A stretch of DNA of 63,008 nucleotides, filler included, from Stramenopiles sp. TOSAG23-6 (GCA_900128565.1; 50 parts of 50 records of this genome joined end to end with filler, not necessarily neighbours in it), one strand, 5' to 3'. Shown: positions 716 to 59,352, counted from the first letter of the whole stretch. The notes: generated by a model from the sequence alone, not told the origin. Numbers and translations: made by a program.

Positions 716-995
716 CCCTAATTCATCCAATCTAGAAATAATAATGACAAACCTGCACTAACAAAAATCCCAAAAAGAATTTTTCGTGCTTCATTTCCTT
801 GAGAGGCTGCGGATTGCAAGTAGTGTGAAGAAATATTCCAATTTTTTTTTGTTTTTTGGTTAGGTACGAAATTTCGTACGAAAAAAAAAAACACGAAATA
901 TTCACATGAGTAAAAACATACAAAAGTTCTTTTGCCTTTTCAGCATCATTTGTTGCCCCTAACGCATTATCATATACATTATCTACCATGTCATG
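716..995 (-). CDS. C-terminal fragment of a Sel1-like repeat protein with a hydrophobic tail, split by intron 818-921
   Basis: Spliced product DMVDNVYDNALGATNDAEKAKELL|QSAASQGNEARKILFGIFVSAGLSLLFLDWMN* fits the Sel1 repeat consensus. Confidence 0.65.
818..921 (-). mobile_element. Introner-family intron, GT...TT boundaries, TT duplication
   Basis: CTT TT|GTATGTTTTT...CGTACGAAATTTCGTACCTAAC...CACACTAC-TT|G CAA; removal restores the Sel1 repeat. Confidence 0.75.
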
Positions 996-1217
996 TTTTT
1001 TTGTACAATATTTCAATTCTTTTTTGTTAGGTACAAAATGTCACAAAAAAAAACCCTAACCCTAACTAAAAAAAACCCTAACCCTAACAAAAAAATTGAT
1101 TGATGAAAACAAAAAAATTGATTGATGAAAACAAAAAAATTGATTGATGAAAACAAAAAAATTGATTGATGAANNNNNNNNNNNNNNNNNNNNNNNNNNN
1201 NNNNNNNNNNNNNNNNN

Positions 1218-1229
1218 TTAATTAATTAA
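1218..1229. other. Artificial contig spacer TTAATTAATTAA flanked by Ns (first of 49, recurring every ~1.25-1.27 kb to 61801-61812)
   Basis: Identical six-frame-stop linker between N runs; spacing decreases monotonically, so contigs are sorted by length. Confidence 0.99.
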
Positions 1230-1357
1230 NNNNNNNNNNNNNNNNNNNNNNNNNNNNNNNNNNNNNNNNNNNNTTGGAAAAATATTTCAAAAAAAATCGT
1301 TAGGTACAAAATTTCGTACGAAAAAAAAACTCGATTTTGAAAAAAAATAAAACACAC

Positions 1358-1474
1358 ATTTTCTGCTAGAGCATCTAATTTAGAAAGTCTTCGTTGCGCT
1401 TCTCTCGCTCTTGTAGAGAATTCATCAATTTTAGTTGTTTGGAATCCATCTGATTTTACACCACTTTTAATTTT

Positions 1475-1530
<56 letters not shown>

Positions 1531-2359
1531 AATTATCCTGTTTTTTCTGCAGATATAATGGAATGGTTTCGTTTATTCCTTTTTTTCTGTGTTCACGAAG
1601 CCATTGAGATACAAATGGTTCTTTCTCTTCTTCTTCTTCTTTTTCTTCTTTTTCTTCTTTTGATTCATTCATGTTTGTATAATCGTAATTCATGTTTGTA
1701 TAATCATAATTATCATTTGAATAGGAAGGAGAATTGTAATTCCCATAGCCTGAAGTATGATCATCAAAATTTCGAAAATTATACTGAGGCTTTTGAATAT
1801 TTTCACGTCTCTCATGATTGAATTTATTCCGAAATCGTTGATTGTCTCCATTAATGCCATAATAGTATTGATTAACATCTTCGCGTTGGATGTCAAAACC
1901 ATTACAACTATCTCTATATATTTGTTCGACGTTTTCTTCTTCATCTTCTTTGTTTTTAATCCAATCACCTAAAGTATGTATTTTGTAAAAATATTTCAAA
2001 TTGTTTTTTGTTAGGTACAAAATTTTTATAAAAAAAAAAATCGAAATTGAAAAAAAAATAAAACATACATCATTATTTTTATCAGAAAGAAGATGATCTT
2101 TGCGATCTTTCATTGAATTACTACATTTTTTGATTCTCTGTAAATTATGGTCTTGACGATTCCATCCCCGTCGTGTAGCTATTGCAGCTTCTCTTTCTGG
2201 ATCTTTATCATATTCTTCAATTTTGTGAATCATTTCATTTTCAAGTATATCGTGCTCCTCGATTTGGTGCTCACGAAGGTCAGATTCAAACCAATCAGAT
2301 AAATGTTTCCCATCTACTTTGAGTTTTTTTTCACATTGCCTTAGACGCTTAATAAGTCC
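1358..2359 (-). CDS. Fragment of an unknown acidic low-complexity protein interrupted by introner copies
   Basis: ORF 1226-2233 with a poly-Asp tract; introner at 1976-2068 and partial copies at both contig ends. Confidence 0.55.
1976..2068 (-). mobile_element. Introner-family intron, GT...AT, 93 nt, no in-frame stop
   Basis: AAT GAT|GTATGTTTT...TTTTGTACCTAAC...AAAATACAT|ACT TTA. Confidence 0.8.
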
Positions 2360-2708
2360 ATGTATTTTGGAAAAATATTCAAAAAAAACAAACTTAAATT
2401 TGTTAGGTACAAAATTTCGTACGAAAAAAAATCGATTTTTTTGTNNNNNNNNNNNNNNNNNNNNNNNNNNNNNNNNNNNNNNNNNNNNTTAATTAATTAA
2501 NNNNNNNNNNNNNNNNNNNNNNNNNNNNNNNNNNNNNNNNNNNNTTCACTTCGACGAAATCAGCGCACCATAGCCGTAGATAAGACACAAAATACGCGCC
2601 CAAACACCCGCACCTCCTGCAACCAAACAACGTCGCAGGATGCTGACATTTCGGCGAGCGAAAATGACGCAACTTGGATAAAGGTTACACGTAAGCGCAA
2701 ATCACAGC

Positions 2709-3715
2709 GTGCACACAAAAACCTCACCAACAATGCATCATCTTCCAAAACACACAAAAAACACAAATCGCGCACAAAATCACGCACTCCACCGCAAGAA
2801 AGCTACAAAACGTTCACGAACAAGCTCCAGATCCTCTTTAGAGGCATCTACAGTCACTCGCAAACGCCCTAAGAACAGCTCTCTAAATGCTACTGGTGAC
2901 ACCTCTCTACGGCTCACAGTTCCGCGGCAACCTATCGCAGATAATGCTGATGATACTCCAGAGCTTACGGATTCCCAACGTACTATCACTGAAGCAGATA
3001 GTACTTCTCAAGATGACACTGATTCCATAGAAACATCTAATTCTTCAAATCCAGTGAACCCTGAACAGGTAGTAGAGAATAACTCTACAAACCTTACAAC
3101 TGCTTCGCCTATTTCTGCGTCTACTGATCAACAACAAAATCCCCTTGTTATTGGTCCAGTAATCACTAATGCAACTGAATCTACTCCGCCTAGCCCCACA
3201 GGCACTCCGAGTAGTATGGATGAACAGGCATTAGACGACATGGCACACACTGTAGAAGCTCAAATAGCACATACTGCTGCAACACAACAACAACATATTG
3301 CAGCAGAACAACAATTTCTTGCCAGCACAGATGCTCATCTGGAACAACTTTCTCGCTTGGCTAATGCTCCTCAGGCGTCCCAATCACCTGAAGAACAGAC
3401 CACAATTTCCCCGTGGACGGCTGAATCCGAGAAAGCAATGCAAGATATTGTATCTAAACCAGGTTATACTGATAATTGGTCGGAGCTTGCATCACTCCTA
3501 AATCGACAGTTTCCAACTCACAACTTTCTACCCCAAAATGTAGCAAGAAAAGTTCGAAACTTTCGCCGTACACAGAACCAACAACAGCAAACCACGGGCT
3601 GGAAAAACAGTCCCATCCCGGATTCGACGATTCCTTATTCATATTTTGCAAATGTTCCATACACGGCTTATATGGTCACGAATTGTCAAACCCTTAAATT
3701 CATTCCTCGTCCTCT
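2709..3715 (+). CDS. Ser/Thr/Gln-rich protein fragment with a Myb/SANT-like motif
   Basis: WTAESEKAMQDIVSKPGYTDNWSELASLLNRQF...QNVARKVRNF resembles Myb Trp spacing; the true start is uncertain. Confidence 0.4.
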
Positions 3716-6355: not shown

Positions 6356-7410
6356 AGTAATTCATATATTGTGAAACATATTTTTTTTTTTGTGTTTTTT
6401 TTTTTTTTTTTAAAAAATTCAAAAAAAAAAACATTAGGGAAAAAATTTCCTAAAAAAAAAAACAAAAAAAAAAAAAAAAATGAAAAAAAAACATACTTTT
6501 TTTGGACATAACGCAACACGAATAGCAAGATCAATTTCAGATGCAAATGCAGCTTGAAATCTTTGAGGAAATGAAAATTGTAATGGTTGTTGATGAAACC
6601 CAGACACATCAGCTGCTGTGATATTGCATTTATTGTGAAATAATAATTTTTTTTCTTTGATTTTGTTAAATTTTCATTTCAAAAAAAAAAATATTTTTTT
6701 TGTTCGATTTTGTTACTATTTTGTACAAAATTTTCATTTCGAAAAAAAACTATATATATTATTTAGGTACAAAATTTGGTATGAAACCATTTCAAAAACA
6801 CAAGTATGAAATAAACGTACATTCACGAGGAGTCTCCACCACCATTTTACCCTTTGTACCAATACATTCAATTCGATTATCATGTATTTTGAAACAATAT
6901 TTCAAAAAAAAAAAAAAAATTTNGTNAGGTACAAAATTTCGTACGAAAAAAAAAATAAATTCGAAATTGAAAACAAATAAAACAAACATATCCATAACAA
7001 GAATTTCTACACATTGAAATTGTACATAAAACTCCACTTTCAAATCGTAAATGCATCGATGCAGTATCAAGAATATTAGAATTTTTTAATTCTTTGATTG
7101 AAGATGATCCAGTCGCATATCTATACTACAGGAAAATATTTTTCAATTTTTTTTTTTTTTTTTTTTTTTGTTAGGTACAAAATTTCGTACGAATTTTTTT
7201 TTTTTTTTAATTTTTAAATTGAAAAAAAAAAAAAAAAAAATGAATAATTAAAATGTACACATCAATAGGTTCTTCATCTAACAACCATCGTGTGAAATCG
7301 ATATCATGTGGTGATAGATCCATAAATGGACATCCTCCTTTTAAAAGAAATTCAACAGGTGGACAAGGATTATCTCCAAAGAATATTCGTATAAATTGTA
7401 TATCACCAAA
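6356..7410 (-). CDS. Gfo/Idh/MocA oxidoreductase (myo-inositol 2-dehydrogenase-like), multi-exon fragment
   Basis: Spliced GGCPFMDLSPHDIDFTRWLL...IDV|YATGSS...YGY|DNRIECIGTKG...PRE|CNIT...FSFPQRFQAAFASEI; introns at 6364-6496, 6628-6820, 6882-6987, 7121-7258. Confidence 0.85.
6882..6987 (-). mobile_element. Introner-family intron, GT...AT
   Basis: GGA TAT|GTTTGTTTT...AAAATACAT|GAT AAT CGA restores the conserved YGYDxRxE motif. Confidence 0.85.
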
Positions 7411-10253: not shown

Positions 10254-11281
10254 GACTTTTGGTGGCCTTGGAGCTGTCCTGAATGGCTTTCACTTCATGA
10301 TGTAGATCATGTGGTAGGTAGCACAAATATGAAATATCGAAAGTTACCCGGTTCCGTCACTTCCAATATAACAATAGCTGATTCTAATGTAGACATTAAT
10401 AAAAATGTTATTCTTAATGGTGATAAGCCCATAGTAGCTGCTTTTGTATCTGATTGTTTTGCTCGAAAAAGATTTCATTATTTACATGAACTTTCAAAGT
10501 TAGTTCATGTACGTTTTCATCATGAATTTAAATTTTATTTTTTTGGTACAAACAATTTTTTTTTTTTCATACAAAATTTTTTTCATACAAAATTTTTTAC
10601 CTAACATTTTTTTTTTAATATTTTTTTCAATTTTTTTTTCACAATGAATGTACACTCCTTTGGTGCATGTTTACAAAATCAAGATCTTGAATTCAGAAAA
10701 GGTACCAATGTCTTAAAAGAATCCCAAATTGATTTTGAGATACGAAAATCATTTCATCAAAAGAGTTTTCGTGTCAGGAAAATTGAAACTNNNNNNNNNN
10801 NNNNNNNNNNNNNNNNNNNNNNNNNNNNNNNNNNNNNNNNNNNNNNNNNNNNNNNNNNCTAACAAATTTAAAAATTTTTTTTTTGAAATATTTTTCCAAA
10901 ATACATTTTATCTTGCCTATGAAAACTCAGAAATTGAAAATTATGTGACTGAAAAAATTGTTGATGGTTACCTTTCAGGGTCAATGCCAATGTACGTTTT
11001 TATCATAAATTTAAAATTTATTTCTTTTGTTTGGTACGAAATTTTGTACCTAATATTTTGTTTTTTTTTGATGATTTCATCATGAATATTTTGTACCTAA
11101 CAAATATCAAAATGTAAAACATTAAAACATATTTTTTCATGAACATTTATTACGGTGCAACAAACCCTAAACAATATTTAGGAGACTTACCCATGTTAGA
11201 TCTAAGAAATCTTCGAAATACGTCTAAAGCAAAGAATGATATCAGAGAAGCAATTCAAAGAGTAAAACATTCCTTGGGTAT
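10254..11281 (+). CDS. GT10 alpha-1,3-fucosyltransferase-like fragment, multi-exon
   Basis: AAFVSDC...ELSKLVH|VHSFGAC...FYLAYENS...YVTEKIVDGY...SMPI|YYGA; GT...AT introns at 10509-10649 and 10992-11146. Confidence 0.85.
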
Positions 11282-25417: not shown

Positions 25418-26439
25418 GTATGCTCGGTCAGTCATATAGTTCAAAATTTTCACCTTGGTTGGCTACTGGTTGTTTATCTCCGCGATTTGTGTATCATGTA
25501 TGTTTTTTATTTTTTATTTCGATTCTTTTTTCATAGTAAAATATGTACCTAACAAAATTTTAAAATTTTGATGTACTGTTCTTTCATTTTTTTTTTATCT
25601 CCGTGATTTGTTCTTCAAGTATGTTTCTTTGAATTATTTTTTGGTATAAAGCATTTTGTATCTAACAAAAACAAAAACAAAAATATGTTTTCACAATATA
25701 TGAGTGTAAGCGATATGAAGCTCATCGTGTGAAAAATAAGTCTACATACTGGCTCGGAGGTTTTGAAATGCTTGTTCGTGATTATTTTCAGTTTCAAGCT
25801 GTCCGACTGGGTGACTCCATTTTCAAATTAGGAGGTCCTTGTGCAGCTTTGAATATTAAAAGTCAGGGAAATAATGATTGGTCAGGATCAACAGAAGATT
25901 TCGTTCGGTGGAAAGAAGGCCGAACAGGATGGCCACTCGTAGATGCGAATATGTACGTTTTCCTTTTCATTTGAACGTCTTATTTTTTTTTTCTATGTTT
26001 TTCTATGAAAAAATTAAAAAAAAAAAAATGTTTTTAACCCATTTCGAATGTCTATTTTTTTTTCACAAGATATGCGAGAATTATTAGCTACAGGGTTTAT
26101 GTCAAATAGAGGACGACAAAATGTTGCTAGTTTTTTAATATTAGATTTAAAAGTAGACTGGCGTTTAGGCGCTGAGTGGTTTGAGGAACAACTTCTGGAT
26201 CATGTATTTTTTCATCATGCAGGTTCAACTTTTTTTTTTTTTTTCCGTATGAATTTAAAATTTTTTTTTTTGTATATGTATGAAATTTCATACTAAATAA
26301 TTTAATCAATTACAATTTTTTGAAATATTTTTTCACAATATATGATCCTGCATCAAATTGGGGTAATTGGGTCGCCGCAGCAGGTTTATTGGGAGGTCGA
26401 CTCAATAAATTTAATATTTTGAAACAGTCCAAACAATAT
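25418..26439 (+). CDS. Cryptochrome DASH FAD-binding domain, four visible exons
   Basis: [33 protein letters not shown]...STYWL...RDYF...[36 protein letters not shown]...[13 protein letters not shown]. Confidence 0.93.
25498..25701 (+). mobile_element. Compound introner-family intron, GT...AT
   Basis: TAT CAT|GTATGT...two GTA(C/T)CTAAC modules...CACAATATAT|GAG TGT. Confidence 0.85.
25953..26073 (+). mobile_element. Diverged introner-family intron, GT...AT
   Basis: GCG AAT AT|GTACGT...CACAAGATAT|G CGA GAA restores DANMREL. Confidence 0.85.
26204..26343 (+). mobile_element. Introner-family intron, GT...AT
   Basis: GAT CAT|GTATTT...CACAATATAT|GAT CCT restores [13 protein letters not shown]. 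Confidence 0.85.
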
Positions 26440-27330: not shown

Positions 27331-27950
27331 ATTTTACTCAAATATGTATCAAAATTGTAGCATTGTTTTATAAGACGTTCAACAATACTACAAAAAATAC
27401 AAAAGTGTTGTTGGATACACATCATAAAAGTCGATTATGAACATATGACTGACACAAATTACCTTTCGAAAATGTAGCAGTAGAGATCTCAGTTTTCATC
27501 ATTTTTTTTCGTACGTAATTTTGTACCTAACGATTTTTTTTACAAAGTCGTCAGTTGCGTCTGCAACATAATGTAGGTAGCACCAAATCTTTGTCAAGGC
27601 ATCCCCAACTATCAACATGAGCTTCATCCCAATTATGAAAGAACCCGACTCGAGAGTGTTCATTACACGTATCTAATCCAACTACGGGATTATGCCCAAT
27701 ACCTTGTTTCATTGCAGCATTTGTGACCTGATCATGTATTTTGGAAAAATATTTCAAAAAAATATTCGTTAGGTACAAAATTTCGTANNNNNNNNNNNNN
27801 NNNNNNNNNNNNNNNNNNNNNNNNNNNNNNNTTAATTAATTAANNNNNNNNNNNNNNNNNNNNNNNNNNNNNNNNNNNNNNNNNNNNTTCTTGAAAATAA
27901 TAAATTCCCTCTACTAGTATAAAAAACTTCTCATTGAAAAATCACCATCA

Positions 27951-28334: not shown

Positions 28335-28506
28335 GCGTAATATACTCAAGAAACCCAACAACAATAAACCGAAAAAAAACCCTTTTCTTAGAAATAGTAT
28401 AGTATTGCTGTGCATAACGTTGGTATTGTTCTTTCACATATTTTTTTGTAAGGCTTATTTTGATTATTCTCAAATAAAATATAAAAAATGATACTTTTGT
28501 ATTTAT

Positions 28507-29151: not shown

Positions 29152-30313
29152 GACATCGATTCTGAGCGATTAAAGAAAGAAGTTGAAAAGAAAGACGCTC
29201 AGCTCCTTCGACTGAAAGGTGAAACCGATTCTTTACGTTTACAAATGTTGACAATGGTTGAAGAGCTGAACAATTGGAAGAACGAAAAAGAATCTTCAAC
29301 GCAACAGAGTACATTTTCTACCTCAGAAAAGGATTCTCTCAACGAAGAAATTGCAGCTCTGAAATTCCAGTTAACGGAACGCCAGCGTAAGATTCATGAA
29401 TTAGAGTATAGAAGTAAAGAAAATCAAGATATTCACTTGAGTCCCCAAAAACAAGATAAAGCAACGAAGTTACAAATAGATGAAATGAAGAAGGAAATTA
29501 CGCGGAAGTTGACAAGTGACTTCCGAAGAAAACATGGAGAAGAATTGCTTTCTCTGCAGCGTCATGTGGCTGATCTTGAAGGGAAAATTAGTGTTGTTGA
29601 AGCAGCGCGTAGTGATGCCGAGGAGCGAGTACAACAAACACGACGACAGCTTGCTGAAAGAGACTCAATTTTTATGCAAGCCAGATCAGAAGCTTTAACG
29701 TTGCGAGATGAATCTCATGATTTCAAAACAGAAACTACAAAACTTCGAGCAGAGGTTGAAATGGAAAAGGGTAAAGTACAAAGGGCTAGACAAAATCTTT
29801 CAGATGAAATACAACGCGCTAATGAAAAATCAAATATGCACATGAAAGAAATGGCTGGAATTCGTGCACATGCTGAACGAACTGAGACTCTTTTGAGAAA
29901 TGAGCATGTATCTTTTTATTACTAATTTAATTTCGTTTTTTTTTTCATAGACAATTTTGTATTTAACGATTTTTTTTAACCAAAACAAAATTATTTTTTC
30001 ACAATACATAAAACGGTAGAAACTTTAAAAAAAGAAATAGATCGAATTCATAATCGAGCTCAAGAATTGGAGACTGAGTTGGATTTCCAACACAAGCGAT
30101 ACAAAAAAGAATCGAATTTCCAACGTGAAGCTTTGAAGAGAGCTGAGCAACAAGTCCAGAACTCTAGGCGATACGAATTAGAAAACAAAGAAGTCTCTCA
30201 GTTTCATCAACAATTATTGGTTGCATTTGGTGAAAGTAGTAGTGATGATTTATCAATGAACAACAATCGTCATAATTTCAGTTCTGCACTTATCCAGAAA
30301 GTTCACCAAATGA
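29152..30313 (+). CDS. Coiled-coil protein fragment; intron at 29908-30009 (GT...AT)
   Basis: GAG CAT|GTATCT...ACAATACAT|AAA ACG joins ORFs 29245 and 30067 in frame. Confidence 0.7.
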
Positions 30314-30466
30314 ANNNNNNNNNNNNNNNNNNNNNNNNNNNNNNNNNNNNNNNNNNNNTTAATTAATTAANNNNNNNNNNNNNNNNNNNNNNNNNNNNNN
30401 NNNNNNNNNNNNNNCAAAATTTCGTACGAAAAATAAATTCGAAATTGAAAAAAAAATAAAACATAC

Positions 30467-31525
30467 ATACAGTACGAAAGGAGAGATAGAATTTACTCAT
30501 GATTTCGCCAGAATATAAACTTTCAATACCATCATCGCCAACATTTGCTACCATTCCAGCTTGTATTAATTGTTTTAAAGATTCTAATGCGATATTATTG
30601 GTAAGAGCAGAAGCTTCACTTGGCTTCTTTTTACACAATCGAATGTAGTAAAATGTACTTTTCAACCAGTCGATGTATTTTGGAAAAATATTTCAAAAAA
30701 AAATCGTTAGGTACAAAATTTCGTATGAAAAAAATTCGAATTTGAAAAAAAAATAAAACGTACATGACGTCACCCACAGATTGTAATGTCCCTAATGCAA
30801 TTTCTGCATTAATACATTCGGCTATTTTTGGATAAAGTTTACTTTCGATTGTATATTGTCCATTCGCAAGATTTTCGTATCGTTGTTTTGTACTTGAACG
30901 AGTCATAATTATAGCAGTACCACTGGTATCAAATTGAGGACGCCCAGCTCTTCCTAGCATTTGTAATACCGCTGATGGATCATACTCAACATGTATTTCG
31001 GAAATATATTTCAAAAAAAAACCCTTAAATTTGTTAGGTACAAAATTTCGTACGAAAAAAACAATTTCAAATTTGAAAAAAAGTAAAACATACATATCCT
31101 CCTTCTGATTGACCTTTCCATTGCTCTGTTCCTTTAATAATAACAGTATGAGCTGGAAGATTCACGCCCATGGCCAAAGTTGTAGTTGTTGCAAGAACTT
31201 TTATCTGTCGTGATCGAAATAAGTCTTCCACAATATTCCGATTATGTATTGTGAAAACAAAAAAAAAAAACTAAAATTTGTTAGGTACGGAATTTCGTAC
31301 CAAAAAAAATTATAATTCATGATGAAAAAACATACATGAGACGAAAGGCCTGCGTGATGAATTGCAAACCCGTGTTTAATCGCATCACTCAGTTTTGATT
31401 CATTTTGAATTCTTCCAGCAGCAATGGAAAGTGTTTTTCTATTTTCTGCAGACTTTGATGCCCCACGTGAAAATTTTTTGAGTACATTGACAGTATCTAC
31501 TGTTGATGATCTAGTACTACAGAAT
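30467..31525 (-). CDS. HFM1: MER3/HFM1 meiotic Ski2-like DNA helicase, four visible exons
   Basis: [21 protein letters not shown]...[22 protein letters not shown]...[27 protein letters not shown]...INAEIALGT...[14 protein letters not shown]...[10 protein letters not shown]. Confidence 0.88.
30673..30763 (-). mobile_element. Introner-family intron close to consensus, GT...AT, 91 nt
   Basis: GTC AT|GTACGTTTTATTTTTTTTTCAAATTCGAATTTTTTTCATACGAAATTTTGTACCTAACGATTTTTTTTTGAAATATTTTTCCAAAATACAT|C GAC TGG. Confidence 0.92.
30991..31093 (-). mobile_element. Introner-family intron, GT...AT, 103 nt
   Basis: GGA TAT|GTATGT...CGTACGAAATTTTGTACCTAAC...GAAATACAT|GTT GAG. Confidence 0.9.
31244..31335 (-). 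mobile_element. Introner-family intron, GT...AT, 92 nt
   Basis: TCT CAT|GTATGT...GTACCTAAC...CACAATACAT|AAT CGG restores HHAGLxxxxRxxVExLF. Confidence 0.9.
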
Positions 31526-31677
31526 ATGTATTTTGGAAAAATATTTCAAAAAAAAATCGTTAGGTACAAAATTTCGTNNNNNNNNNNNNNNNNNNNNNNN
31601 NNNNNNNNNNNNNNNNNNNNNTTAATTAATTAANNNNNNNNNNNNNNNNNNNNNNNNNNNNNNNNNNNNNNNNNNNN

Positions 31678-32255
31678 AACGACTTACGCAAGAAATTCGC
31701 TGTTTACGTCGTTGTCGTAATGTGGGTGTCCCAACACCTGCAATTTTATTTGTTAATTTGGAAAGTAGTCAAATTTTCATGGAGCGGATTAATGGAGAAA
31801 CAGTCAAAAGTTTTTTATATTCAAATCCGTCAAAAACTAAGCGTATTAATATATTACAAAAAATCGGCAAAATATTGGCTACTATGCATAATCATGGTGT
31901 CAGTCACGGTGATCTTACGACATCAAATATAATGCTGCGTGATAAATTTCAAATCTGCAGTAGTTCAAATTCATTGAGTTCAACTTCGCCAGTCCTTTTA
32001 GATAATGAAATAGAAAAGGAAATTGTATTAATTGATTTTGGGCTTGGAAGTAATAAAACAAATGCTGAGGATAGGGCAGTTGACTTATACGTATTAGAAC
32101 GTGCATTTGCTTCGACACATCCAAATTCCAAAGAATTGTTTGCAGAGGTGATGAAGTCTTACGAAACGGAAGCATCAGAAAAACATTGGAAATCGACAAA
32201 ATCACGTTTAGAGGCTGTAAGAGCTCGTGGAAGGAAACGATCCTGTTTTGGTTAG
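31678..32255 (+). CDS. BUD32: KEOPS kinase Bud32/TP53RK (5' truncated)
   Basis: HGDLTTSNIML, LIDFGL, AEDRAVDLYVLERAF, VRARGRKRSCFG*. Confidence 0.95.
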
Positions 32256-32940
32256 GGTTAGGGTTTTAAAGTGAATAATTTTTGCAATACAGTATTCGTT
32301 TTTTCTTATAAGCCTTTTTATTCTATATATTTTGAAAACACTTTAAACATTGTTGTTTTTATTTTCGTCCCATTTTATATCTAATTTATTCCATAATTGA
32401 GGAAAGAGAGACCGTGTAACTTTTTCTTGCCACTGACCTCCCTTGAACATCCCTATACCAATATTCGAAGCATCATTTTCCAATTCTCTCTCACGAGCTT
32501 CAATTTCAGCAATCCTCTGCTGCTCAGTCGCTGTTTTACACAAAGGTTGAATACCACTATGTGATGCCCATAAATAATGGCTTGTATCAACTCTTTTGAA
32601 AGTTTTACTTTTTTTCTTCTTATTATTCAATGTAGTAGTTTTCTCAGTAGTTGTCGATTCATTTACATCATTCCCACTTATTTTTGTTTGTTTTGTTTTT
32701 TTTGGCTTTGATGATTTTAATGGAGCTGGTGGCGCTTTGTAACTACTTTTCCTTCGAAATAGAAAATTTCTCCAGATCCAATACTCAATTGGTTTATATG
32801 AAATATAAACCGCGAGAGGTACAGCAAATAAAAGAAAAAANNNNNNNNNNNNNNNNNNNNNNNNNNNNNNNNNNNNNNNNNNNNTTAATTAATTAANNNN
32901 NNNNNNNNNNNNNNNNNNNNNNNNNNNNNNNNNNNNNNNN

Positions 32941-33466
32941 CATATTCACTAATTACAGAGTGTAAAATTTCCAACTTTAATGTTTTAAAAGCTAAAGAAT
33001 CTCGAAGAATACTCAATAATTCCACAGTTTCTGGATATATATGAAAAGAGTCACCCTCCGGTGTAAGACTAAAGCTTGCTACTGGGAGACGCTCTATGCT
33101 CTTATTTTCTATATCTTTTACATTACCTTTTTTACTCTTGTTTTCAGAGACTTTTACTTTATCTTTTTTACTCTCATTTTGTAAGACTTTTAAATTATCT
33201 ATTTGCTTTTTACCTCTGCCATCTAGAACAAGCATGTATTCAGAACCATAAAATATTCGAGGATTAGCAAGGACCATAGCAATTTCAAATATATCTGTAG
33301 AAGTGCCTACTTTTTGTAAACCAGTAACTTTCAACGACGATACCACCTGTGGAAACAAAGCTCTTACCATTTCCTGAAAAACATCAAGACTACAACCTTG
33401 AGAAAAAATTACAGGTTTCTTGAAATCCCCTACACTACACACCAATACTGTTTGATCAGAAGTCAT
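32941..33466 (-). CDS. Hypothetical protein N-terminal fragment
   Basis: Open ORF from ATG at 33466 to the contig end; no motif recognised. Confidence 0.45.
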
Positions 33467-34412
33467 CGTATATCACCCAATGTGGAAACAATAGTTATAA
33501 AGGAAAGGAAGTATCAGAAAGGTGAACCTTTTTCTTTAGTCATGAAATGGAACCTTTTTTTTTTTCACGAATTTTTTTTTTTTTTCATTGCGCGCGACGT
33601 CGACTTTTGATTTCAAAGCCGGAAAAAAAACCTAAATTTCGTGGGCTGATTCTCAAGAGTAGCTCGACAAAATCGTTTATTACTAGCTAGAAGAGAAAAG
33701 AAGAGCAGAAAAAACGTGCAAATAGATGAAAATTAAAACAGGAAAAGGATATGAAGGAGGCAAAACATAAAAGAAGACAAAAGAAACGTCTTTAAAAATG
33801 TGCAAAATTATATATACAGCAAACCCAATGAATTATCGTCAAGCAGTTTTGTTCGACATTGCAACAGCTGTGACTGGGACATTATTTTATAATACGTACA
33901 TTACGACATTGTAGTAAGTATACAAGATTGCGTATTGGTACAGCACATGATGTTGTATTTTGTACCCGTTTATTAAGCCTCGATCAAGTGGCACCTGTGA
34001 TGTATGTTTTATTTTTTTCAATTTCGAATTTCTTTTTGTTTGTTTGTTTAGTAGAAAATTTCATACCTAGTAATCATGGAGGATGTACGTTTCTATTTAA
34101 AANNNNNNNNNNNNNNNNNNNNNNNNNNNNNNNNNNNNNNNNNNNNTTAATTAATTAANNNNNNNNNNNNNNNNNNNNNNNNNNNNNNNNNNNNNNNNNN
34201 NNTGTACCTAACAAATTTTTTTAGATTTTTTTTGAAATATTTTTCCAAAATACATGTACTTCAAAGACTGAAGCGTGTATGTTGTCACTATGATTTTTAA
34301 ATATATGTTTTTTTTTTCGTACGAAATTTAAAATTTTGTACATAAACCCTAAAAAAAAATAGATTTTTTTTTTTTTATTTTTGTAAAAAAATTTCATACC
34401 TAACAAATTTCA

Positions 34413-35311
34413 ATGTTTGGAAATATTATTGAAGATACATTCCCTCTGCGGATTTCTGCGTGTAAAATTATCTCAAGACTTTTACAGGCAGAAAAAAAAA
34501 CACTCCTTAAAGTTGAAATCTCCGAATCGAAAATCTCCGAATCGAAAGCTGGAGTGATTTCCGAGATTTCCACTTCTGGTGATATGGGATCTGTGACGTC
34601 ATTATTTGTGAATGCGTCTATCTTTGTAATTAATGGCAATGGCAAGCAGTGGATGGAAAATGCGATGTCTAATTGTATTGATTTATTGCATGTACATTTT
34701 CATTGTGAATTTCAATTTTTTATTTTTTTTTTTTAGTATGAAATTTTCATAGAAAACAATTTTTTTTGAACAATTTTAAATTTTAAATATTTTTTACAAG
34801 ATATGAAAGTGAAGTAGATGTGATGTATATTGTTATAGGCTTGATTCGTCGATTGCTTTGTCGTAAGATGGGTGGTTCAGAAATGGCTATTGCGGTGGCT
34901 CCTCTTCTTGTACCAATTCTCAAGCAGTTTTGTATGGTTTAATAATAGATTTCATAATTTCAATTTTTTTTTTCGTACGAAATTTTGTACCTAACAATTT
35001 TTTTAGAATTTTTTTCAAATATTTTTCCAAAAAGCATGGATACAAAATATAAACGATCCTTGGATGGTTGAAGATATTAGGGAGTTGTTTACGACGATGT
35101 GTAATGCACACCAAACCGTGTGTTCCATTATTCAAACTCATATGTACGTTTTCATGATTCATTTCAAATTTATTTTTTTTTCGTTTTTCATACGAAATTT
35201 TGTACCTAACATTTGTTTTTTTTTTTTCGAAAAAAAAAAAAAAAAATAATATTTTTTCATTATACATGGTTCCTGTGATTAATCAAGTTCTCACCGATCC
35301 AAATACAGTAT
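34413..35311 (+). CDS. HEAT-repeat protein fragment (importin-9-like); introns at 34692-34804, 34932-35037, 35144-35267 (all GT...AT)
   Basis: FPLRISACKIISRL...DLLH|ESEVDV...VPILKQF|WIQNINDPWMVEDIRELF...QTHM|VPVINQVL; one open frame after splicing. Confidence 0.6.
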
Positions 35312-35464
35312 GTATGTTTTATTTTTTTTTGTATGATTTTTTTTTCGTACGAAATTTTGTACCTNNNNNNNNNNNNNNNNNNNNNNNNNNNNNNNNNNNN
35401 NNNNNNNNTTAATTAATTAANNNNNNNNNNNNNNNNNNNNNNNNNNNNNNNNNNNNNNNNNNNN

Positions 35465-36279
35465 ATCCGAGAGAGTAATCCTTGCGCCTCTTGACTAAGA
35501 CAGTTTTGTTCATCAGAACTGAAAAATAAATACATCAATTTCACTTCCTCCACTGTAAAAATGTGTCTAAAGGCACTTGGCAAATTCGATGTACAAAAAT
35601 CCGTACTTAATTTTGAATTTCGAATTTGTGTACTACAAATGTTTGGAAATAATACAGCTTTTAGTGCAACAATTACATGTAAATGATAAGCAGACACTGA
35701 CTGTGACGCTTGCCAACGAATTTCTTGCATATGACTAGAGCCAATCAACAGCAGATTGTTTCTACTTGTTTGATTTTGAAGTGTTTCATTTGGAAGTGTT
35801 TCATTTACTCCAGGAGTGTTTTCTAAATTAAATGGAAATGGTTTCACTGCATCTTTTTTGGCAGCTTCATTATTCAATGAATCACTCATACATTGTTTAC
35901 ACCGAAACCAACTACTTTCGGATACTGTCATTTGAAACTCATTCGATATATTATTAGCAGAAGTTCCAGACGAAATTTCTTTCTTTCCAGATGTAGTTTC
36001 TTTCACCACTGGTTTTGTGTACTCTCCACCTTTTCTAGTTCCACACATTGAACATGAAAGATTGACAATTTTGTTCTCTGAAAATGTACACACGCTACAA
36101 GTCCAGCGAGATTTCTGATGAATCATTTTATTCACGACATTAGGGTTGTTATTAGATGCAATTTCAGAATCAGTCGCTACTGGTACATTCGATATGGAAG
36201 TCTGTTTAAGTCGCCGCCTTTTAGAAAGGCTTAATCGACTGGACGTTGATGACTTTGAATATTGTTTCTTGTTCTTCAT
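35465..36279 (-). CDS. RanBP2-type zinc-finger protein N-terminus, possibly a FAN1-like nuclease
   Basis: WTCSVCTFSEN...SCSMCG; IFTVEEVKLMYLF...LSQEAQGLLSR resembles the FAN1 region before the winged helix. Confidence 0.55.
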
Positions 36280-36814
36280 TCTAGAAAGGACATGAAAATG
36301 TGCATTGAAATGTTGCTGAATTAGATACCTCGTATATGCTCATATGAATAAAGGTGACATGAAGCAGCGGTCAGGTCGCGAAAACCAAAAAAATATTTGA
36401 TGTCCTGACAGAAATTCGACCGCACGACATTTGTTTTTTCCGAGAAGAGAACACAAAACAGAGACACCTTTTGTAAATCTCCTTTTGAAAGCGAATTACT
36501 GTGTCATTTATGGGATTTATTAGACGAGTTGAACCATACGATATTTTTTTAACACACAGCATATACGTGACTTGGAACATTTCTTCTTTAAAGTCAAAAA
36601 AATAGTATCTCTCTACAACAATGTTNNNNNNNNNNNNNNNNNNNNNNNNNNNNNNNNNNNNNNNNNNNNTTAATTAATTAANNNNNNNNNNNNNNNNNNN
36701 NNNNNNNNNNNNNNNNNNNNNNNNNATTTTGGAAAAATATTTCAAAAAAAAATCGTTAGGTACAACATTTCGTACGAAAAATATATTCGAAATTGATAAA
36801 AAAATAAAACATAC

Positions 36815-49431: not shown

Positions 49432-49959
49432 GAAAGAGAAAGATCAAATTTAGCTTGGGATAAAAAACAACAACAACAACAACAACAACAAAATATTCAG
49501 CACTATAAAACTAAAACATCCAAACATTTTAACCCTAACCCTAACCCTACAACATTTAATAATACTAGTCAAATATCAAAAGGTTCATTTGAACAATCAT
49601 TTAAAGTACAAAAATCTTCTTCTTTTGTACATAGTACTACAGAAACTCATTGGAGAAACCCACAAAATATTAAAAATATTAAAAATATGAAAAATATGAA
49701 AAATAGTAAAAATATTAAAAATACACGAAATATTTATCATGGGTCAGGAAGAATTCCGCCACGTGGCACACCACCAATACGAAGTTTTAATACAAAAAAT
49801 ACATACAGACACAGAAATGATTCTCTTTCGTCTACTACACGAAATCTTAATATCCTGGAAAATAGAACTTCACATCGTAACCCTAACCCTAATGAAAGAA
49901 GGACAACAAGAACATTACGTAGGACAAAATCATATACAAATGTAAGGTATAAACCCTAA
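49432..49959 (+). CDS. Low-complexity terminal exon with Gln and Asn-Pro tracts
   Basis: Follows an introner-type 3' end; a tandem duplication spans the stop codon. Confidence 0.45.
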   Translation, partial: ERERSNLAWDKKQQQQQQQQNIQHYKTKTSKHFNPNPNPTTFNNTSQISKGSFEQSFKVQKSSSFVHSTTETHWRNPQNIKNIKNMKNMKNSKNIKNTRNIYHGSGRIPPRGTPPIRSFNTKNTYRHRNDSLSSTTRNLNILENRTSHRNPNPNERRTTRTLRRTKSYTNVRYKP

Positions 49960-54336: not shown

Positions 54337-55491
54337 GTTATTATTGTTATTACTATTGTTATTATTACTATTGTTATTATTGTTATTACTAGTATTATTA
54401 TTATTATTATTATTACTATTGTTATTACTATTATTAGTCCAATCGACCAGAAAAGCAATGACATGCTCCCGTATTAAATTGACTACTTTATATACAACAC
54501 ATTCCTTTTCCCATACAGAACACTTTTTCATAATAAAATCTTCAATATTAGAAAGAACCTCTGTTCCAAGCCAATTACCAACAGAACTAACATTTATTTT
54601 TGGTCCTGATTTTTCTGGATAATATTCGCTAAATTGAACACTGAGTACTAAAGGAGGGACATGTACAACACGTATTGAAGACGCTTTCCAAGAAGAAAAT
54701 GTTGCATTTCCTAAATATTGATTATTTATAATTTTTGCAATCTCAATATTTTCCTTTTTCTTTTTCTTTTCAAGCAAGACTTCAGTCTTTGCTTCTTTTG
54801 CTAATTGTATTTGTTCCTCTGCATGTTGTTGGGCAAAATAAATAGTTTCTTGTTTATGATTGACTTTTGCCAAAGCTATTCTTGCATCTATATCTAGTGG
54901 TGACGTATAATCGAAATTAACCACTTGTTCTTCTACCTGTTTGTGCTCAATCAATGTGAAAAAATATTTCAAATAAAAAAAATCATTAGGTACAAAATTT
55001 CGTATGAAAAAAAAATCGAAATTGAAATGAAAACGTTCTTGGTTAGTTTTCAATCGCTCAATTTCACGAATTGTTTCTAATGCTTCCAAGTCAGCTACAA
55101 TTGCCCGATGTTCTGCGATCTCTATACATTTTGTGAAAATATTTTAAATTTGAGATTCTTTAGATATGAAATATAAGAAAAAAAATCATTAGGTACAAAA
55201 TTTCGTACCAAAAAAAAAAAATTGAAATTCATGATAAAAACGTACATGGATAAGTTATCTAAATCATAAATAGACATTCCTTCGCTCTGAAGTAATTGAA
55301 ACGTTTCTTCAAGCGAAAATAACTTTTCTTGAGCTTCTAAAAGAGGAACATTTGTTTGTTTATTTTGTTTCATATTCTTTTGTGCATTATTATTTTGTGT
55401 CATGGCTTGCTTTGACTCCACTGGAACTGCCACACTTTGCTTTGACTCCACTGGAACTGCCACACTTTGCTTTGACTCCACTGGAACTGCC
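54337..55491 (-). CDS. RWD-domain protein fragment (RNF14-like); intron at 55124-55245 (GT...AT)
   Basis: DLEALETI...VVHVPPLVLSVQFSEYYP...P.I.V....WL...ECVVYKVVNLIREH. Confidence 0.7.
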
Positions 55492-55591: not shown

Positions 55592-56746
55592 GTTATTATT
55601 GTTATTACTATTGTTATTATTACTATTGTTATTATTGTTATTACTAGTATTATTATTATTATTATTATTACTATTGTTATTACTATTATTAGTCCAATCG
55701 ACCAGAAAAGCAATGACATGCTCCCGTATTAAATTGACTACTTTATATACAACACATTCCTTTTCCCATACAGAACACTTTTTCATAATAAAATCTTCAA
55801 TATTAGAAAGAACCTCTGTTCCAAGCCAATTACCAACAGAACTAACATTTATTTTTGGTCCTGATTTTTCTGGATAATATTCGCTAAATTGAACACTGAG
55901 TACTAAAGGAGGGACATGTACAACACGTATTGAAGACGCTTTCCAAGAAGAAAATGTTGCATTTCCTAAATATTGATTATTTATAATTTTTGCAATCTCA
56001 ATATTTTCCTTTTTCTTTTTCTTTTCAAGCAAGACTTCAGTCTTTGCTTCTTTTGCTAATTGTATTTGTTCCTCTGCATGTTGTTGGGCAAAATAAATAG
56101 TTTCTTGTTTATGATTGACTTTTGCCAAAGCTATTCTTGCATCTATATCTAGTGGTGACGTATAATCGAAATTAACCACTTGTTCTTCTACCTGTTTGTG
56201 CTCAATCAATGTGAAAAAATATTTCAAATAAAAAAAATCATTAGGTACAAAATTTCGTATGAAAAAAAAATCGAAATTGAAATGAAAACGTTCTTGGTTA
56301 GTTTTCAATCGCTCAATTTCACGAATTGTTTCTAATGCTTCCAAGTCAGCTACAATTGCCCGATGTTCTGCGATCTCTATACATTTTGTGAAAATATTTT
56401 AAATTTGAGATTCTTTAGATATGAAATATAAGAAAAAAAATCATTAGGTACAAAATTTCGTACCAAAAAAAAAAAATTGAAATTCATGATAAAAACGTAC
56501 ATGGATAAGTTATCTAAATCATAAATAGACATTCCTTCGCTCTGAAGTAATTGAAACGTTTCTTCAAGCGAAAATAACTTTTCTTGAGCTTCTAAAAGAG
56601 GAACATTTGTTTGTTTATTTTGTTTCATATTCTTTTGTGCATTATTATTTTGTGTCATGGCTTGCTTTGACTCCACTGGAACTGCCACACTTTGCTTTGA
56701 CTCCACTGGAACTGCCACACTTTGCTTTGACTCCACTGGAACTGCC
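55592..56746. repeat. Exact duplicate of contig 54337-55491
   Basis: Same 1155-nt length and ends; identical ORF translations. Confidence 0.95.
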
Positions 56747-56867: not shown

Positions 56868-56909
<42 letters not shown>

Positions 56910-57957
56910 CTTTTTGTTGTGTTTCAAAACTATTTTCACAATATATGCTATGAAAATTCATACTTTTTAGGTTCAAGTGGCGGACATCATGATGCCTTGA
57001 AACATGGAGGATATAGTTGCTCCAAGGGAAAATCATCATTTTATGAAGAATTTTATCTTAAAACTTGTGGACCAAATGGGAAAATTATATGTGGTCAATA
57101 TGGTGCTTGTACATGATGAAGCCTAACCCTATTTGTTTTTTTTGGTTTTTTTCGATTTGAACAAAAAAAACAAAAAAAAATCTTTTATTACTTTAATAAA
57201 ATCTTGTATACACAAACAAAAAAAGTTGACATTTTTTTTTCCTATTCTATTCTAAAAGATTTTTTTTTAAAACTTTTGAAATCAATACAATTCTGTGTAA
57301 AGTCATTTATACACATTAAAATTTTTGAATTTTTAAACATTCGAAATCAATAATTTGTTGTAAAGTCATTCAAACACATTAAAATTTTTGAATTTGTTTT
57401 TAAAAATTCACTTTCCTACCCAATAATTCTTTGTAAAGTCATTTTCATGAAATTTTTTTAATTTTCCCATAACCTCCTCAGGTTGTACAATAGTAGTATT
57501 GATATCAGGTGGTAAAAAAACTTTATCATATTTTAGAAAATTATAATGAATCTCATTACAAATACCACGAAAATGATGAGATTGTAAATAATGCATTGCT
57601 TTGTTACATGTTTTTAGAACTTTTTTTAGAACTTTTCTATTGCATATATTCGAATTCGCATTCTTGTTGCATGAGGAGGGATCTTGTGAATTCTCAGCAC
57701 GACAACTGTTTTGTTTTTTTTCACTTGCTTCTTCTACAACATTTTTGCAAAATTTTTTCAGTTCAACATTACCTTTTTCTTGAGCTTCTTCACATCCATT
57801 ACTCATTTCAGTCATTTTTTTGGATATTGGAGAAAAAAAAGTAACATTTTTCAATTTTTTCATATTTAGTAAAACTTCTTTTTTCTTCTCCTATATTTTG
57901 GAAAAATATTTCAAAATTTTCTTAAAAAAAAAATTGTTAGGTATAAAATTTACTATG

Positions 57958-57999
<42 letters not shown>

Positions 58000-58195
58000 N
58001 NNNNNNNNNNNNNNNNNNNNNNNNNNNNNNNNNNNNNNNNNNNTTAATTAATTAANNNNNNNNNNNNNNNNNNNNNNNNNNNNNNNNNNNNNNNNNNNNA
58101 AAATATTTCAAAAAAAAAAACTAAAATTTGTTAGGTACAAAATTTCGTACGAAAACCAAAACAAAAAATTAAAAATTAAAAAAAAATAAAACGTA

Positions 58196-59124
58196 CATAC
58201 TATTTTCTGGAATATCAAATAAATTAGCTAATTTCTTCACTTCTTCAGAATCTATTCCAGGGAACATCAGCAGTAAGATCGATAAAAGCCGTTCCTTTAC
58301 AATATCAGGAACATTATGTGTTTTACAAAAATATGTCAAATTAAATTTTTATTGTAGGAAAATCGTATGAAAAATAAATTTTCTAGGAAAAAAATAAAAT
58401 TGAAATGAGTGATGAAAATAAGCATTAAAAAAAAAAATCTTTTTTGTTTTTTTGTTTTTTTGTTTTTTTGTTTTTTTGTTTTTTTGTTTAGGTATGAAAT
58501 TTCGTATGAAAACCAAAAAAAAAAAAAAATGAAATTCATGATGAAAACAAACATTTGCATCATCATCTTTTGTATTCATATTATAGTAACTATACGCGCC
58601 TCTACTAAACTCATCTTCACCCCATCGAGTCACATGAGAAAACACCAAAACACTTCCACATATAGATTTCGTGTTTTCATTACTTTTGTGAATTGGATGA
58701 TTTAGATTCATTTTGATCAATTTTTTTTTTTTCGTGGATTTCGTGGGATTAGGGTTAGGGTTTTCAAACATTTCTTTCAAACTACATAATGCTGCAATAA
58801 CAATTTCATTGTCAGTCAAATCTCTAATTTTAAGTGCTTCATTGCCAACAATTGATGCAGATAAGACAGGTATTCCTTTCAATTTATAATGATTTTCAAA
58901 TACACTCACTTTCAAATGTTTAGGGTTAGGGTTAGGGTTAGGGTTAGGGTGTATAGTAGACAGATTCTTCTCGAGTGTGTGAAGTTGGTTAGGGTTAATA
59001 TTGGCTAAAAAAGGAGCATTTTTTGGCCAAAAACAAGATTCAAATTGAAGAATAATTTTTGTGTATTCACACACACCAATACGTTGAATAGCATTTTGTT
59101 TTTTTATTGGAAGAGGTGGATGAA
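58196..59124 (-). CDS. Flavin amine oxidase family fragment (polyamine oxidase/LSD1-like); intron at 58316-58552
   Basis: FHPPLPIKKQNAIQRIG...TKIILQF...FW; VTRWGEDEFSRGAYSY. Confidence 0.85.
58921..58950 (-). repeat. Longest in-exon telomere-like tract, (CCCTAA) x5, encoding PNPNPNPNP
   Basis: TAGGGTTAGGGTTAGGGTTAGGGTTAGGGT inside the amine oxidase ORF. Confidence 0.9.
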
Positions 59125-59188
59125 ATGTAATTTTGAGAAAATATTTAAAAAAAAATGAAAAATTTTGTTAGGTACAAAATTATCTACG

Positions 59189-59228
<40 letters not shown>

Positions 59229-59352
59229 GAATTTTTTTTTTTTTGGAAAAAANNNNNNNNNNNNNNNNNNNNNNNNNNNNNNNNNNNNNNNNNNNNTTAA
59301 TTAATTAANNNNNNNNNNNNNNNNNNNNNNNNNNNNNNNNNNNNNNNNNNNN

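Follow-up and report, generated by a model that had tools for sequence, protein, structure and literature searches.

Few rules of gene expression are as constant as the AG acceptor, and the DNA described here raises the question of whether a lineage can abandon it at introns that are otherwise ordinary. The window, i.e. the whole stretch of 63,008 bases that was analysed, carries genes interrupted by a family of short repeated inserts that mostly begin with GTAYGT and end in AT. A preliminary description, made from the sequence alone, had taken these inserts for introns that were seeded by a mobile element and are removed by a spliceosome accepting a non-AG 3′ end. We find that the inserts have no usable AG acceptor and that their borders coincide with a direct repeat of two nucleotides (nt), a feature that the preliminary description had missed. 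The inserts probably represent a family of transposon-derived spliceosomal introns, namely an introner resembling a miniature inverted-repeat transposable element (MITE), in which the element and one copy of the duplicated target are spliced out together at a non-AG acceptor.

A dense family of inserts with GTAYGT starts and AT ends

The window consists of ∼58 N-free pieces of ∼1.16 kilobases (kb) each, whose length falls from 1,173 to 1,152 bases; they are separated by linkers in which N-runs surround the 12-mer TTAATTAATTAA (49 occurrences; e.g. 1174-1273 and 20201-20300). It is a set of independent contigs ordered by size and not a chromosome segment, and adjacent genes are therefore unlinked. 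N occupies 4,694 of the 63,008 positions. A 25-nt core of the insert family, TTTCGTAYGAAATTTTGTACCTAAC, was matched 46 times at ≤3 mismatches and not once in any of 100 shuffles. An nhmmer profile built from 16 complete copies gave 78 matches in the window at E ≤ 1e-3, which merged into 75 units covering 5,661 of the 58,314 non-N bases (9.7%). At least one match is present in 30 of the 58 pieces, the hosts being unrelated genes; 20 of the 116 piece ends fall within a copy, and the density exceeds one insert per kb. Apparent micro-exons between two family copies measure 21 nt at 34256-34276 and 7 nt at ∼34064-34070 (both on the plus strand), and appear to be a sign of dense landing of the element.

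Read from 5′ to 3′, a copy consists of GTAYGTTTT, a T-run, AAATTCGAATTT, a second T-run, TTTCGTACGAAA, TTTTGTACCTAAC, a T-rich stretch and GAAATATTTTTCCAAAATACAT; one subfamily carries GTACGTTTTCATCATGAA at its 5′ terminus and ..TTTTTTCACAATACAT at its 3′ terminus. AAATTCGAATTT and TTTCGTACGAAA are perfect 12-nt palindromes, two per element (e.g. 30733-30744 and 30719-30730 on the minus strand), and could be transposase binding sites or small hairpins. The palindrome TTTCGTACGAAA lies just 5′ of a branch-like CCTAAC. CTAAC is part of the conserved core. A script located the branch-like motif ACCTAAC in 23 copies; in 22 of them it lies 30–58 nt before the 3′ end, the exception being a spurious late match at 2 nt.

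The 5′ end is GT in 27/28 non-duplicate ends, mostly as GTAYGT, the exception being the internal junction of a dimer. The 3′ end is AT in 34/36 non-duplicate ends and AG in the other two (..AAAATATAG at 25416 and 57892); by eye, further AG-like 3′ ends occur at 22914 and ∼4563. The two letters preceding the final AT are AC in 25/36, with AT, GA, CC, AA, GC and GT making up the rest. The high-copy family and the consensus ends given in the preliminary description are thus borne out, but its wording 'near-identical' was too strong. Monomers range from 91 to 155 nt, and duplication of the core brings lengths up to 168 nt; pairwise identity has a median of 0.71 (range 0.56–0.94) among 19 complete monomers, i.e. 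those of the 26 complete copies that remain when duplicated-core, N-bearing and last-found copies are excluded. The family has had time to diverge and yet counts young members.

Removal of the inserts restores reading frames and residues

Twenty-six complete copies were delimited by coordinates (Table 1). The candidates 53834/53747, 22070/21953, 22070/21973, 34277/34414, 34277/34416, 55034/54950 and 58552/58351 were left out as not delimitable. As measured by the longest flanking open reading frames (ORFs), 19/23 hand-delimited copies are in frame after GT..AT removal; the four misses comprise an ambiguous copy, a copy whose exon runs into a gap after 9 nt, and two copies whose ends are uncertain. 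The junction-spanning ORF was longer in the sense than in the antisense direction in 19/19 well-delimited copies, and in 17/19 the exact border performed better than all shifts of 1–2 nt. Of ten further rows, five pass (sense longer than antisense in 5/5), the other five being 53834/53747 and the two alternatives each at 22070 and 34277. The spliced-ORF test is also passed by one additional copy (26204-26343), so that the restoration of frame claimed earlier holds in 19 of 23 copies by flanking ORFs and in six more. By our own count the length is not a multiple of 3 in 18/26 complete copies; therefore most copies would shift the frame if they were kept.

All 24 complete copies tested are inserted in the sense orientation, as the preliminary description had asserted for its unrelated host genes. 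Cruder tests were also run. With 120-nt flanks, 49/113 flanks were open on both strands, and an outward-ORF test of 73 units scored 37 as sense, 6 as antisense and 30 as unclear. Two of the six 'antisense' units are sense by the spanning-ORF test and one has an apparently spurious antisense ORF; the others are the short fragments 27494-27542 and 41963-42002, and 23235-23302, which lies just past a stop codon. The fragment at 41963-42002 (minus strand) is a 40-nt piece of the core, antisense in a 324-codon ORF (41763-42734, plus strand) that translates it as ..RNSLGTKFGTKK..; either chance similarity or an exonised remnant may account for it.

PDB and Pfam entries locate three junctions to the exact residue. 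In a helicase gene, the last residue of exon A corresponds to Brr2 (6qv3_A) residue 374 and the first of exon B to 375, and Y50 of exon B and V1 of exon C align to Y1279-V1280 of ASCC3 (8alz_B). In a cryptochrome/photolyase gene, exon 1 ends at position 60 of FAD_binding_7, a split Met codon supplies position 61 and exon 2 starts at 62. The fourth helicase exon and two GT10 exons gave no match in PDB, the third cryptochrome exon gave none in Pfam, where single short exons mostly had no match either, and no homologue was recovered with the DCD exon. Among the host names proposed earlier, only the photolyase/cryptochrome FAD domain, GT10 and, weakly, DCD were recovered by Pfam, which also identified an RWD domain; PhoD, Nup62, IDO, WD40 and inositol dehydrogenase are not among the names so supported. 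The name MER3 is not established, the best PDB matches of the helicase being ASCC3, SLH1 and Brr2.

A two-nucleotide direct repeat overlaps both borders

The exon immediately upstream of the insert ends in AT in 21/28 copies, whereas the dinucleotide AT makes up 9.8% of the background. More generally, the dinucleotide that ends the exon is identical to the one that ends the insert in 24/26 complete copies; 22 of these are AT/AT, one is GT/GT (54064/53911) and one is TT/TT (921/818). In the latter two, the retained non-AT letters are native codon bases, of Val in ..FPVQ|VKF.. and of Leu in ..KELL|QSAASQG... The GT/GT junction is based on the ORF test, on a weak Pfam match (Dev_Cell_Death, E 0.012) and on the motif FPxQVxF. 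Where the upstream letters are AT (22 copies), the 3′ end is never other than AT (Fisher p ∼0.02 by our own arithmetic, a value computed before counting that the letters match). Around the repeat, C is found at −3 in 15/37 and G at +1 in 22/42, against a background of 16–17%, suggesting a target of roughly C|AT|G. The direct repeat looks like a 2-bp target-site duplication that prefers AT. A mobile-element origin fits this repeat, which covaries at the GT/GT and TT/TT sites, and it also fits the C|AT|G-like flank.

Because the letters at the exon end and the insert end are the same, the placements GT..AT, TG..CA and AT..AC yield identical mRNA, and no spliced read discriminates among them. GT..AT is favoured because it has the most regular ends (GT in 27/28 and AT in 34/36, compared with AT in 21/28 and AC in 25/36) and because GTAYGT stands in the U1/U6 donor register only if its G is intron position +1. 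No AG occurs from the branch motif to +24 nt of the exon in 7/25 copies, and some in-frame AG does in 7/25; the in-frame AGs of the helicase gene, at −33, −27, +6 and +15, do not coincide with the borders of a joined environmental contig described below. None of the junctions fixed by PDB, Pfam or that contig is at an AG. The inserts thus have a GT donor and a branch motif, as canonical U2-type introns do, and no usable AG at the 3′ end; the acceptor is non-AG under either border placement, GT..AT or AT..AC.

The AT..AC placement merits separate consideration. AT-AC is known as the one non-GT-AG pair that both spliceosomes process efficiently, and U12-type AT-AC introns carry a ATATCCTT-like donor and a TCCTTAAC branch site near the 3′ end. 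The same mobile family could have AT..AC as its chemical borders, in which case the upstream duplicate would be intronic, the intron would end with the ..ATAC of the element and the terminal pair would be A(+1)/C(−1), which spliceosomes are known to tolerate. The mRNA would be the same, the element proper does end in AC in 25/36 copies, and the constant letters in the GT/GT and TT/TT copies are ..TAC and not the final two. However, these ends are the less regular ones, and the conserved GTAYGT would be two positions off the register of U1/U6 pairing. The U12-type donor is absent, (AT)GTAYGTTTT standing in its place, and ACCTAAC is 30–58 nt from the end instead of 10–20 nt. We therefore regard AT..AC borders as unlikely.

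A natural molecule joined at the predicted borders

Contigs of four environmental runs (three studies) were aligned to the helicase region 30415-31577. In run X1, one contig of 5,243 nt (depth 7.73) is the sole contig over the helicase exons and covers most exon bins. Its positions 228-1002 correspond to 31527-31336, 31243-31092, 30988-30764 and 30672-30467 in succession, with 3 mismatches in 775 nt (99.6% identity); ∼4.5 kb of the contig lie outside this alignment. All five helicase inserts are absent, three of them complete (92, 103 and 91 nt) and two partial at the ends, and the joins are at the predicted borders, one border being 2 nt off as the flanking repeats allow. The insert at 30673-30763, one of those singled out for a check in the preliminary description, is thus lacking at its predicted borders, in a run whose library type is unrecorded and guessed as 'DNA?'.

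We read the joined contig as mRNA in preference to intron-less DNA of a close strain. This reading is favoured because five of five sites are empty at such identity, because 775 nt without any insert come from a genome with more than one per kb, and because the family in X1 reaches ∼20,000 times the exon depth (∼1.5e5 versus 7.7, a ratio that is not taken as a copy number given the uncertain type of the run and its mix of organisms). The family is present in all four runs at word depths of ∼2e3 to 1.5e5. Three of the runs, including a poly(A) one, are labelled RNA; there it was found at ∼1e3 to 4e4, with the helicase exons uncovered.

The contig could also be genomic if the inserts were eliminated at the DNA level, in the manner of ciliate internal eliminated sequences, or were absent from most cells. 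Such a reading would agree with the guessed DNA label, with the joined form being the only X1 contig over these exons, and with the single copy of the 2-nt repeat that is left behind, as in TA-bounded eliminated sequences. We consider it extremely improbable. Excision from DNA would be strand-blind, yet the complete copies tested are all sense; conservation of the donor and branch motifs also speaks against it. All five positions within 1.16 kb are empty in a run in which the family far outnumbers these exons, and a contig that lacks inserts throughout its aligned length looks like mRNA at this insert density.

Contigs in X1, X7, X9 and X10 also contain joints from 30466/30468 to 30673/30675, in which the 3′ end of the family is connected to its 5′ end with 0–2 extra AT. 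The best-supported joint is found in 33 contigs of X1, and joints occur in the RNA-labelled runs as well. Their sides are 18–31 nt long with 92% likeness, and they were flagged unreliable. They could be circles or tandem copies; no head-to-tail tandem of family copies was found within the window.

A proposed route of insertion and removal

We infer from these features that the inserts integrate as DNA, that the major spliceosome removes them and that the acceptor letters are those of the duplicated target. The mobile unit would be a non-autonomous element of ∼90–150 bp that starts with GTAYGTTTT and ends with AAAATAC, carrying the two palindromes, ACCTAAC and a T-rich tract. It would insert into DNA with a 2-bp target-site duplication, preferably of AT in a C|AT|G-like site. 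Only sense insertions would survive in coding sequence, as only these can be removed from the transcript. Removal of the element together with one copy of the duplication would return the mRNA to its pre-insertion sequence. The 5′ cut would be made at |GUAYGU, and the exons would be ligated after the downstream copy of the duplication, usually AU and once each GU and UU, so that the lineage would use a non-AG 3′ splice site 30–58 nt past the branch motif. Of the earlier proposal that the spliceosome accepts a non-AG end and that a mobile element seeded the introns, the U2-type donor and branch motifs, the non-AG border and the signs of mobile origin have stood; an AT acceptor and removal by the spliceosome are what the proposed route would entail.

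Several observations weigh against this reading. The covariation that argues for a duplication is found in two copies only, GT/GT and TT/TT. The direct repeat is broken in two complete copies, AC/AT (12500) and TT/AT (34932), with an in-frame AG lying 3 nt before the border in the latter. The candidate 53834/53747, which ends in CACAG, fits neither GT-AG nor the direct repeat. The cleavage sites are shown by no read, the three border placements being equivalent in mRNA, and the X1 contig could be intron-less DNA of a close strain, its kind being a guess. Some contigs of the RNA-labelled runs contain the repeat and continue beyond it, as unspliced RNA or carried-over DNA would. Neither a transposase nor an autonomous copy came to light in the window, whose ORFs were not systematically screened for one. 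The terminal inverted repeats are short and imperfect (ATGTA/TACAT, TTTCAAA/TTTGAAA). In minimum-energy folds of single copies (n = 5), the termini are paired in four, three of which have the insert end ACAU and form AUGUA/UACAU; the fourth has the insert end AUAU and pairs accordingly, and the fifth shows neither pairing. UUUCAAA/UUUGAAA pairing is seen in two of the four end-pairing folds, and the folds also show a small hairpin, GUACG..UGUAC, directly before CUAAC. Fold energies are no better than those of shuffles (z −0.35 to +0.64), and RNAalifold on 16 copies gave no conserved or covarying pair. We treat the inverted ends as weak transposon-like termini and not as a demonstrated RNA structure.

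Paired ends and direct repeats recall a further possibility, in which the inserts leave the RNA by the non-spliceosomal excision proposed for nonconventional introns of euglenids and some diplonemids, with a circular product. The direct repeat overlapping both borders in nearly all complete copies, the termini paired in four of five folds and the circle-like head-to-tail joints, seen also in RNA-labelled runs, would all be expected from it. Yet GTAYGT and CTAAC are kept here, whereas those introns are described as having neither conserved borders nor a U1 match (PMC6221363, PMC12621601). The folds equal shuffles and show no covarying pair, tandem genomic copies would produce joints that look alike, the joints themselves being short, and the named best matches of the mitochondrial RNA polymerase of the host (see below) are almost all stramenopile, not euglenozoan, sequences. 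We judge this route to be very unlikely.

Under the spliceosomal reading, a bolder proposition can be made, which we advance tentatively. The major spliceosome may no longer need AG, and may ligate after a transposon-duplicated dinucleotide at yeast-like GUAYGU introns, of which there could be around ten thousand. With AU in ∼94% of copies and GU or UU in others, the acceptor might be chosen by position and not by identity, being set 2 nt past the UAC end of the element and by the distance from the branch. If true, this would be the first otherwise canonical U2-type intron population with a systematic non-AG acceptor defined by insertion. No description of a GT..AT or AT-repeat introner was found in the literature searched, supplements excluded, nor one of a family in which donor and branch stay canonical and the acceptor alone is altered, to the duplicated target.

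Such a system would have several consequences. Because only the acceptor is changed, the second catalytic step could be studied in isolation, in particular what replaces the G(+1)/G(−1) contact; Slu7, Prp18, Prp22, Prp8 and U2AF35 are candidates to examine for changes at this step. Intron gain from a transposon would be very dense, the inserts numbering more than one per kb and some micro-exons measuring 7–21 nt. A duplicated target that apparently doubles as acceptor bears on how coding sequence can be colonised without killing the host. Gene finders that assume GT-AG would mis-annotate nearly all genes of such genomes, and the repeat fragments short-read assemblies, as seen in the contig ends that fall within a copy.

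Comparison with known intron systems

The inserts share features with several systems. The introners of Micromonas pusilla and Aureococcus anophagefferens are likewise short non-autonomous elements in many unrelated genes (PMC11282704, PMC7789003); the element provides one splice site and the target-site duplication the other, and element and duplicate are removed together. Aureococcus is a stramenopile, as the present host probably is. Those introners are canonical GT-AG with constant direct and inverted repeats, whereas the duplication here is of 2 nt, usually AT, and the 3′ border is non-AG. Amoebophrya A25 and A120 have repeated non-canonical introns whose direct repeats overlap the borders and make them ambiguous, with inverted repeats that bring the ends together and a proposed MITE-like origin (PMC7789003). 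Their direct repeats are 3–5 nt and their inverted repeats 8–20 nt, with no dominant dinucleotide pair and with U1 components reported as not found (PMC7789003); the present family, by contrast, has a 2-nt repeat, weak inverted repeats, a strict GTAYGT donor and CTAAC.

Fritillaria borealis possesses numerous lineage-specific introns of presumed MITE origin, an adapted U2 spliceosome and common AC or AT 3′ ends (PMC11282704). Its commonest pairs are AG-AC and AG-AT, so that the donor is non-canonical too, unlike the textbook GTAYGT seen here (PMC11282704). The nonconventional and intermediate introns of euglenids and of hemistasiid and eupelagonemid diplonemids resemble our inserts in short direct repeats at the junction, in ends that pair, in a suspected origin from transposons and in the frequent insertion of new copies (PMC6221363, PMC12621601, PMC11282704). 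They differ in lacking conserved borders and a U1 match and in circular release, while U2-type signals are conserved here; with conserved borders, and pairing that equals shuffles, our family is left with the direct repeat as the only feature in common. Taken together, the large-scale AG breakers Amoebophrya and the euglenozoans are described as having lost donor signals as well, and the donor dinucleotide of Fritillaria is also non-canonical.

AT-AC introns, whether U12-type or of the rare U2-type, are similar in that one of the three equivalent placements is AT..AC in most copies. They differ from our inserts in the donor, in the branch distance and in the share of AC ends given above (PMC11282704 in part). 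With ciliate eliminated sequences the inserts share the repeated dinucleotide and not strand-independence.

Individual copies

Coordinates of the delimited copies, and of two 3′ ends of AG type, are collected in Table 1. The piece 54337-55491 is identical to 55592-56746, ORFs and intron ends included, i.e. one contig is present twice.

Table 1. Copies of the insert family in the window. Exon letters are in lower case; pairs such as AT/AT give the exon end and the insert end.
Coordinates	Strand	Form	Borders	Host gene	Junction
818..921	-	104 nt	TT/TT, ttt|GTATGT..CTACTT|gca	Sel1-like spacing by eye	in frame; ..EKAKELL|QSAASQGNEA..
1976..2068	-	complete, 93 nt	AT/AT		spanning ORF 125/234 codons, antisense 9
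6882..6987	-	complete, 106 nt (2 N)	AT/AT		frame test ambiguous
7117..7260	-	complete, 144 nt	gat|GTGTAC..AGATAT|gcg		in frame 60/63 codons; shifts 9-13
10509..10649	+	complete, 141 nt	cat|GTACGT..ATGAAT|gta		in frame 115/47 codons
10992..11146	+	complete, 155 nt	aat|GTACGT..GAACAT|tta	GT10 fucosyltransferase fragment	in frame; upstream exon Glyco_transf_10 E 2.2e-6
12500..12590	+	complete, 91 nt	AC/AT (repeat unmatched)		9 nt downstream exon before gap
20474..20641	-	duplicated core, 168 nt	cat|GTACAT..ATCCAT|tgt		in frame
20699..20810	-	complete, 112 nt	cat|GTTTGT..CTAAAT|gtt		in frame 199/28 codons; tie with two shifts
23664..23777	-	complete, 114 nt (1 N)	AT/AT		in frame 66/118 codons
24771..24862	+	complete, 92 nt	tat|GTATGT..ATATAT|tgt		spanning ORF 183/97 codons, antisense 5
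25360-25417	+	second AG-type 3′ end			
25953..26073	+	diverged, without core motif, 121 nt	flanking 5-nt repeat ATATG	cryptochrome/photolyase	FAD_binding_7 60/61/62
26204..26343	+	complete, 140 nt	cat|GTATTT..ATATAT|gat	same cryptochrome/photolyase gene	spliced ORF open; 1-2 nt shifts break ORF
29908..30009	+	complete, 102 nt	cat|GTATCT..ATACAT|aaa		spanning ORF 252/101 codons
30673..30763	-	complete, 91 nt	cat|GTACGT..ATACAT|cga	ASCC3/SLH1/Brr2-type helicase	in frame; absent from X1 contig (pieces 30467-30672, 30764-30988)
30991..31093	-	complete, 103 nt	tat|GTATGT..ATACAT|gtt	helicase	Y|V = ASCC3 Y1279-V1280; absent from X1 contig, border 2 nt off
31244..31335	-	complete, 92 nt	cat|GTATGT..ATACAT|aat	helicase	Brr2 374/375; absent from X1 contig
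34692..34804	+	diverged, 113 nt	cat|GTACAT..AGATAT|gaa		in frame 96/45 codons; antisense nearly equal, 44
34932..35037	+	complete, 106 nt	TT/AT (1-nt repeat)		border AT, or in-frame AG 3 nt upstream with one extra codon
35144..35267	+	complete, 124 nt	AT/AT		in frame
48260..48418	+	two cores, 159 nt	AT/AT		in frame 54/120 codons
48476..48580	+	complete, 105 nt	cat|GTATGT..ATATAT|aat		in frame 39/66 codons; shifts 6-7
48644..48801	+	complete, 158 nt	cat|GTTTGT..TTACAT|gct		in frame 95/65 codons
53505..53601	-	complete, 97 nt	AT/AT		in frame 53/65 codons
53911..54064	-	dimeric, 154 nt	GT/GT, ggt|GTTTGT..ATACGT|gaa	DCD-like; upstream exon to Dev_Cell_Death profile position 79, weak (E 0.012)	in frame, 49 codons shorter side, best of shifts tried; retained GT in Val codon
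55124..55245	-	complete, 122 nt; recurs at 56379-56500 in duplicate contig	cat|GTACGT..ATGTAT|aga	RWD-domain gene, RWD E 5.7e-7	in frame 81/263 codons
57891..57967	-	3′ half; 5′ end lost in gap	end ..CCAAAATATAG (AG for AT)		

Host lineage and occurrence

The host is probably a marine stramenopile-like protist of heterotrophic habit, and the sequence probably a single-cell assembly; we offer this assignment as a lead. A mitochondrial RNA polymerase fragment (294 aa) has named best matches that are nearly all stramenopiles at 40–52% identity, from oomycetes, Cafeteria, brown algae, diatoms and chrysophytes, with one chlorarachniophyte. A fragment of DNA ligase belongs to the SNM1-fused class. 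31-mers of 28500-36400 recur in public runs of seawater and marine metagenomes and in one 2015 single-organism data set. A diplonemid host, whose consideration relates to marine diplonemid single-cell genomes reported to be rich in nonconventional introns (PMC6221363, PMC12621601), was dropped in view of the stramenopile matches of the polymerase and the ligase type. An atlas search yielded no lead on taxonomy.

Viral contigs gave 0 matches, as did metagenome contigs searched with the 25-nt core. A 17-nt part of the core hit 64 metagenome loci, and the fuzzy core was present in only 2 of them; these were taken as chance matches. Rfam and tRNA scans of the window yielded no matches.

Other observations in the window

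GC per 2 kb is 22–43% and below 32% in most bins. The pieces at 37987-39146 and 45537-47587 have a higher GC (∼0.38–0.43 per 2 kb) and carry no family copies; they may stem from another organism in the assembly. An M3-peptidase-like contig (8894-9668, plus strand) jumps nearly directly to ..FSHIFAGGYSAGYYSY.. with a frame change. About 100 residues of the family are presumably missing there, for which a deletion, an unrecognised intron and an amplification chimera are all candidate causes.

Telomere-like (CCCTAA)2 occurs 39 times at ≤1 mismatch against 0.11 expected (e.g. 58920-58949 and 22442-22453 on the minus strand, 42302-42313 and 49533-49544 on the plus strand). Open frames of at least 60 codons contain 15 of 23 perfect (CCCTAA) arrays when the C-rich strand is read as sense, and 0 of them when the G-rich strand is; the arrays encode NPNPN or TLTL within many unrelated ORFs.

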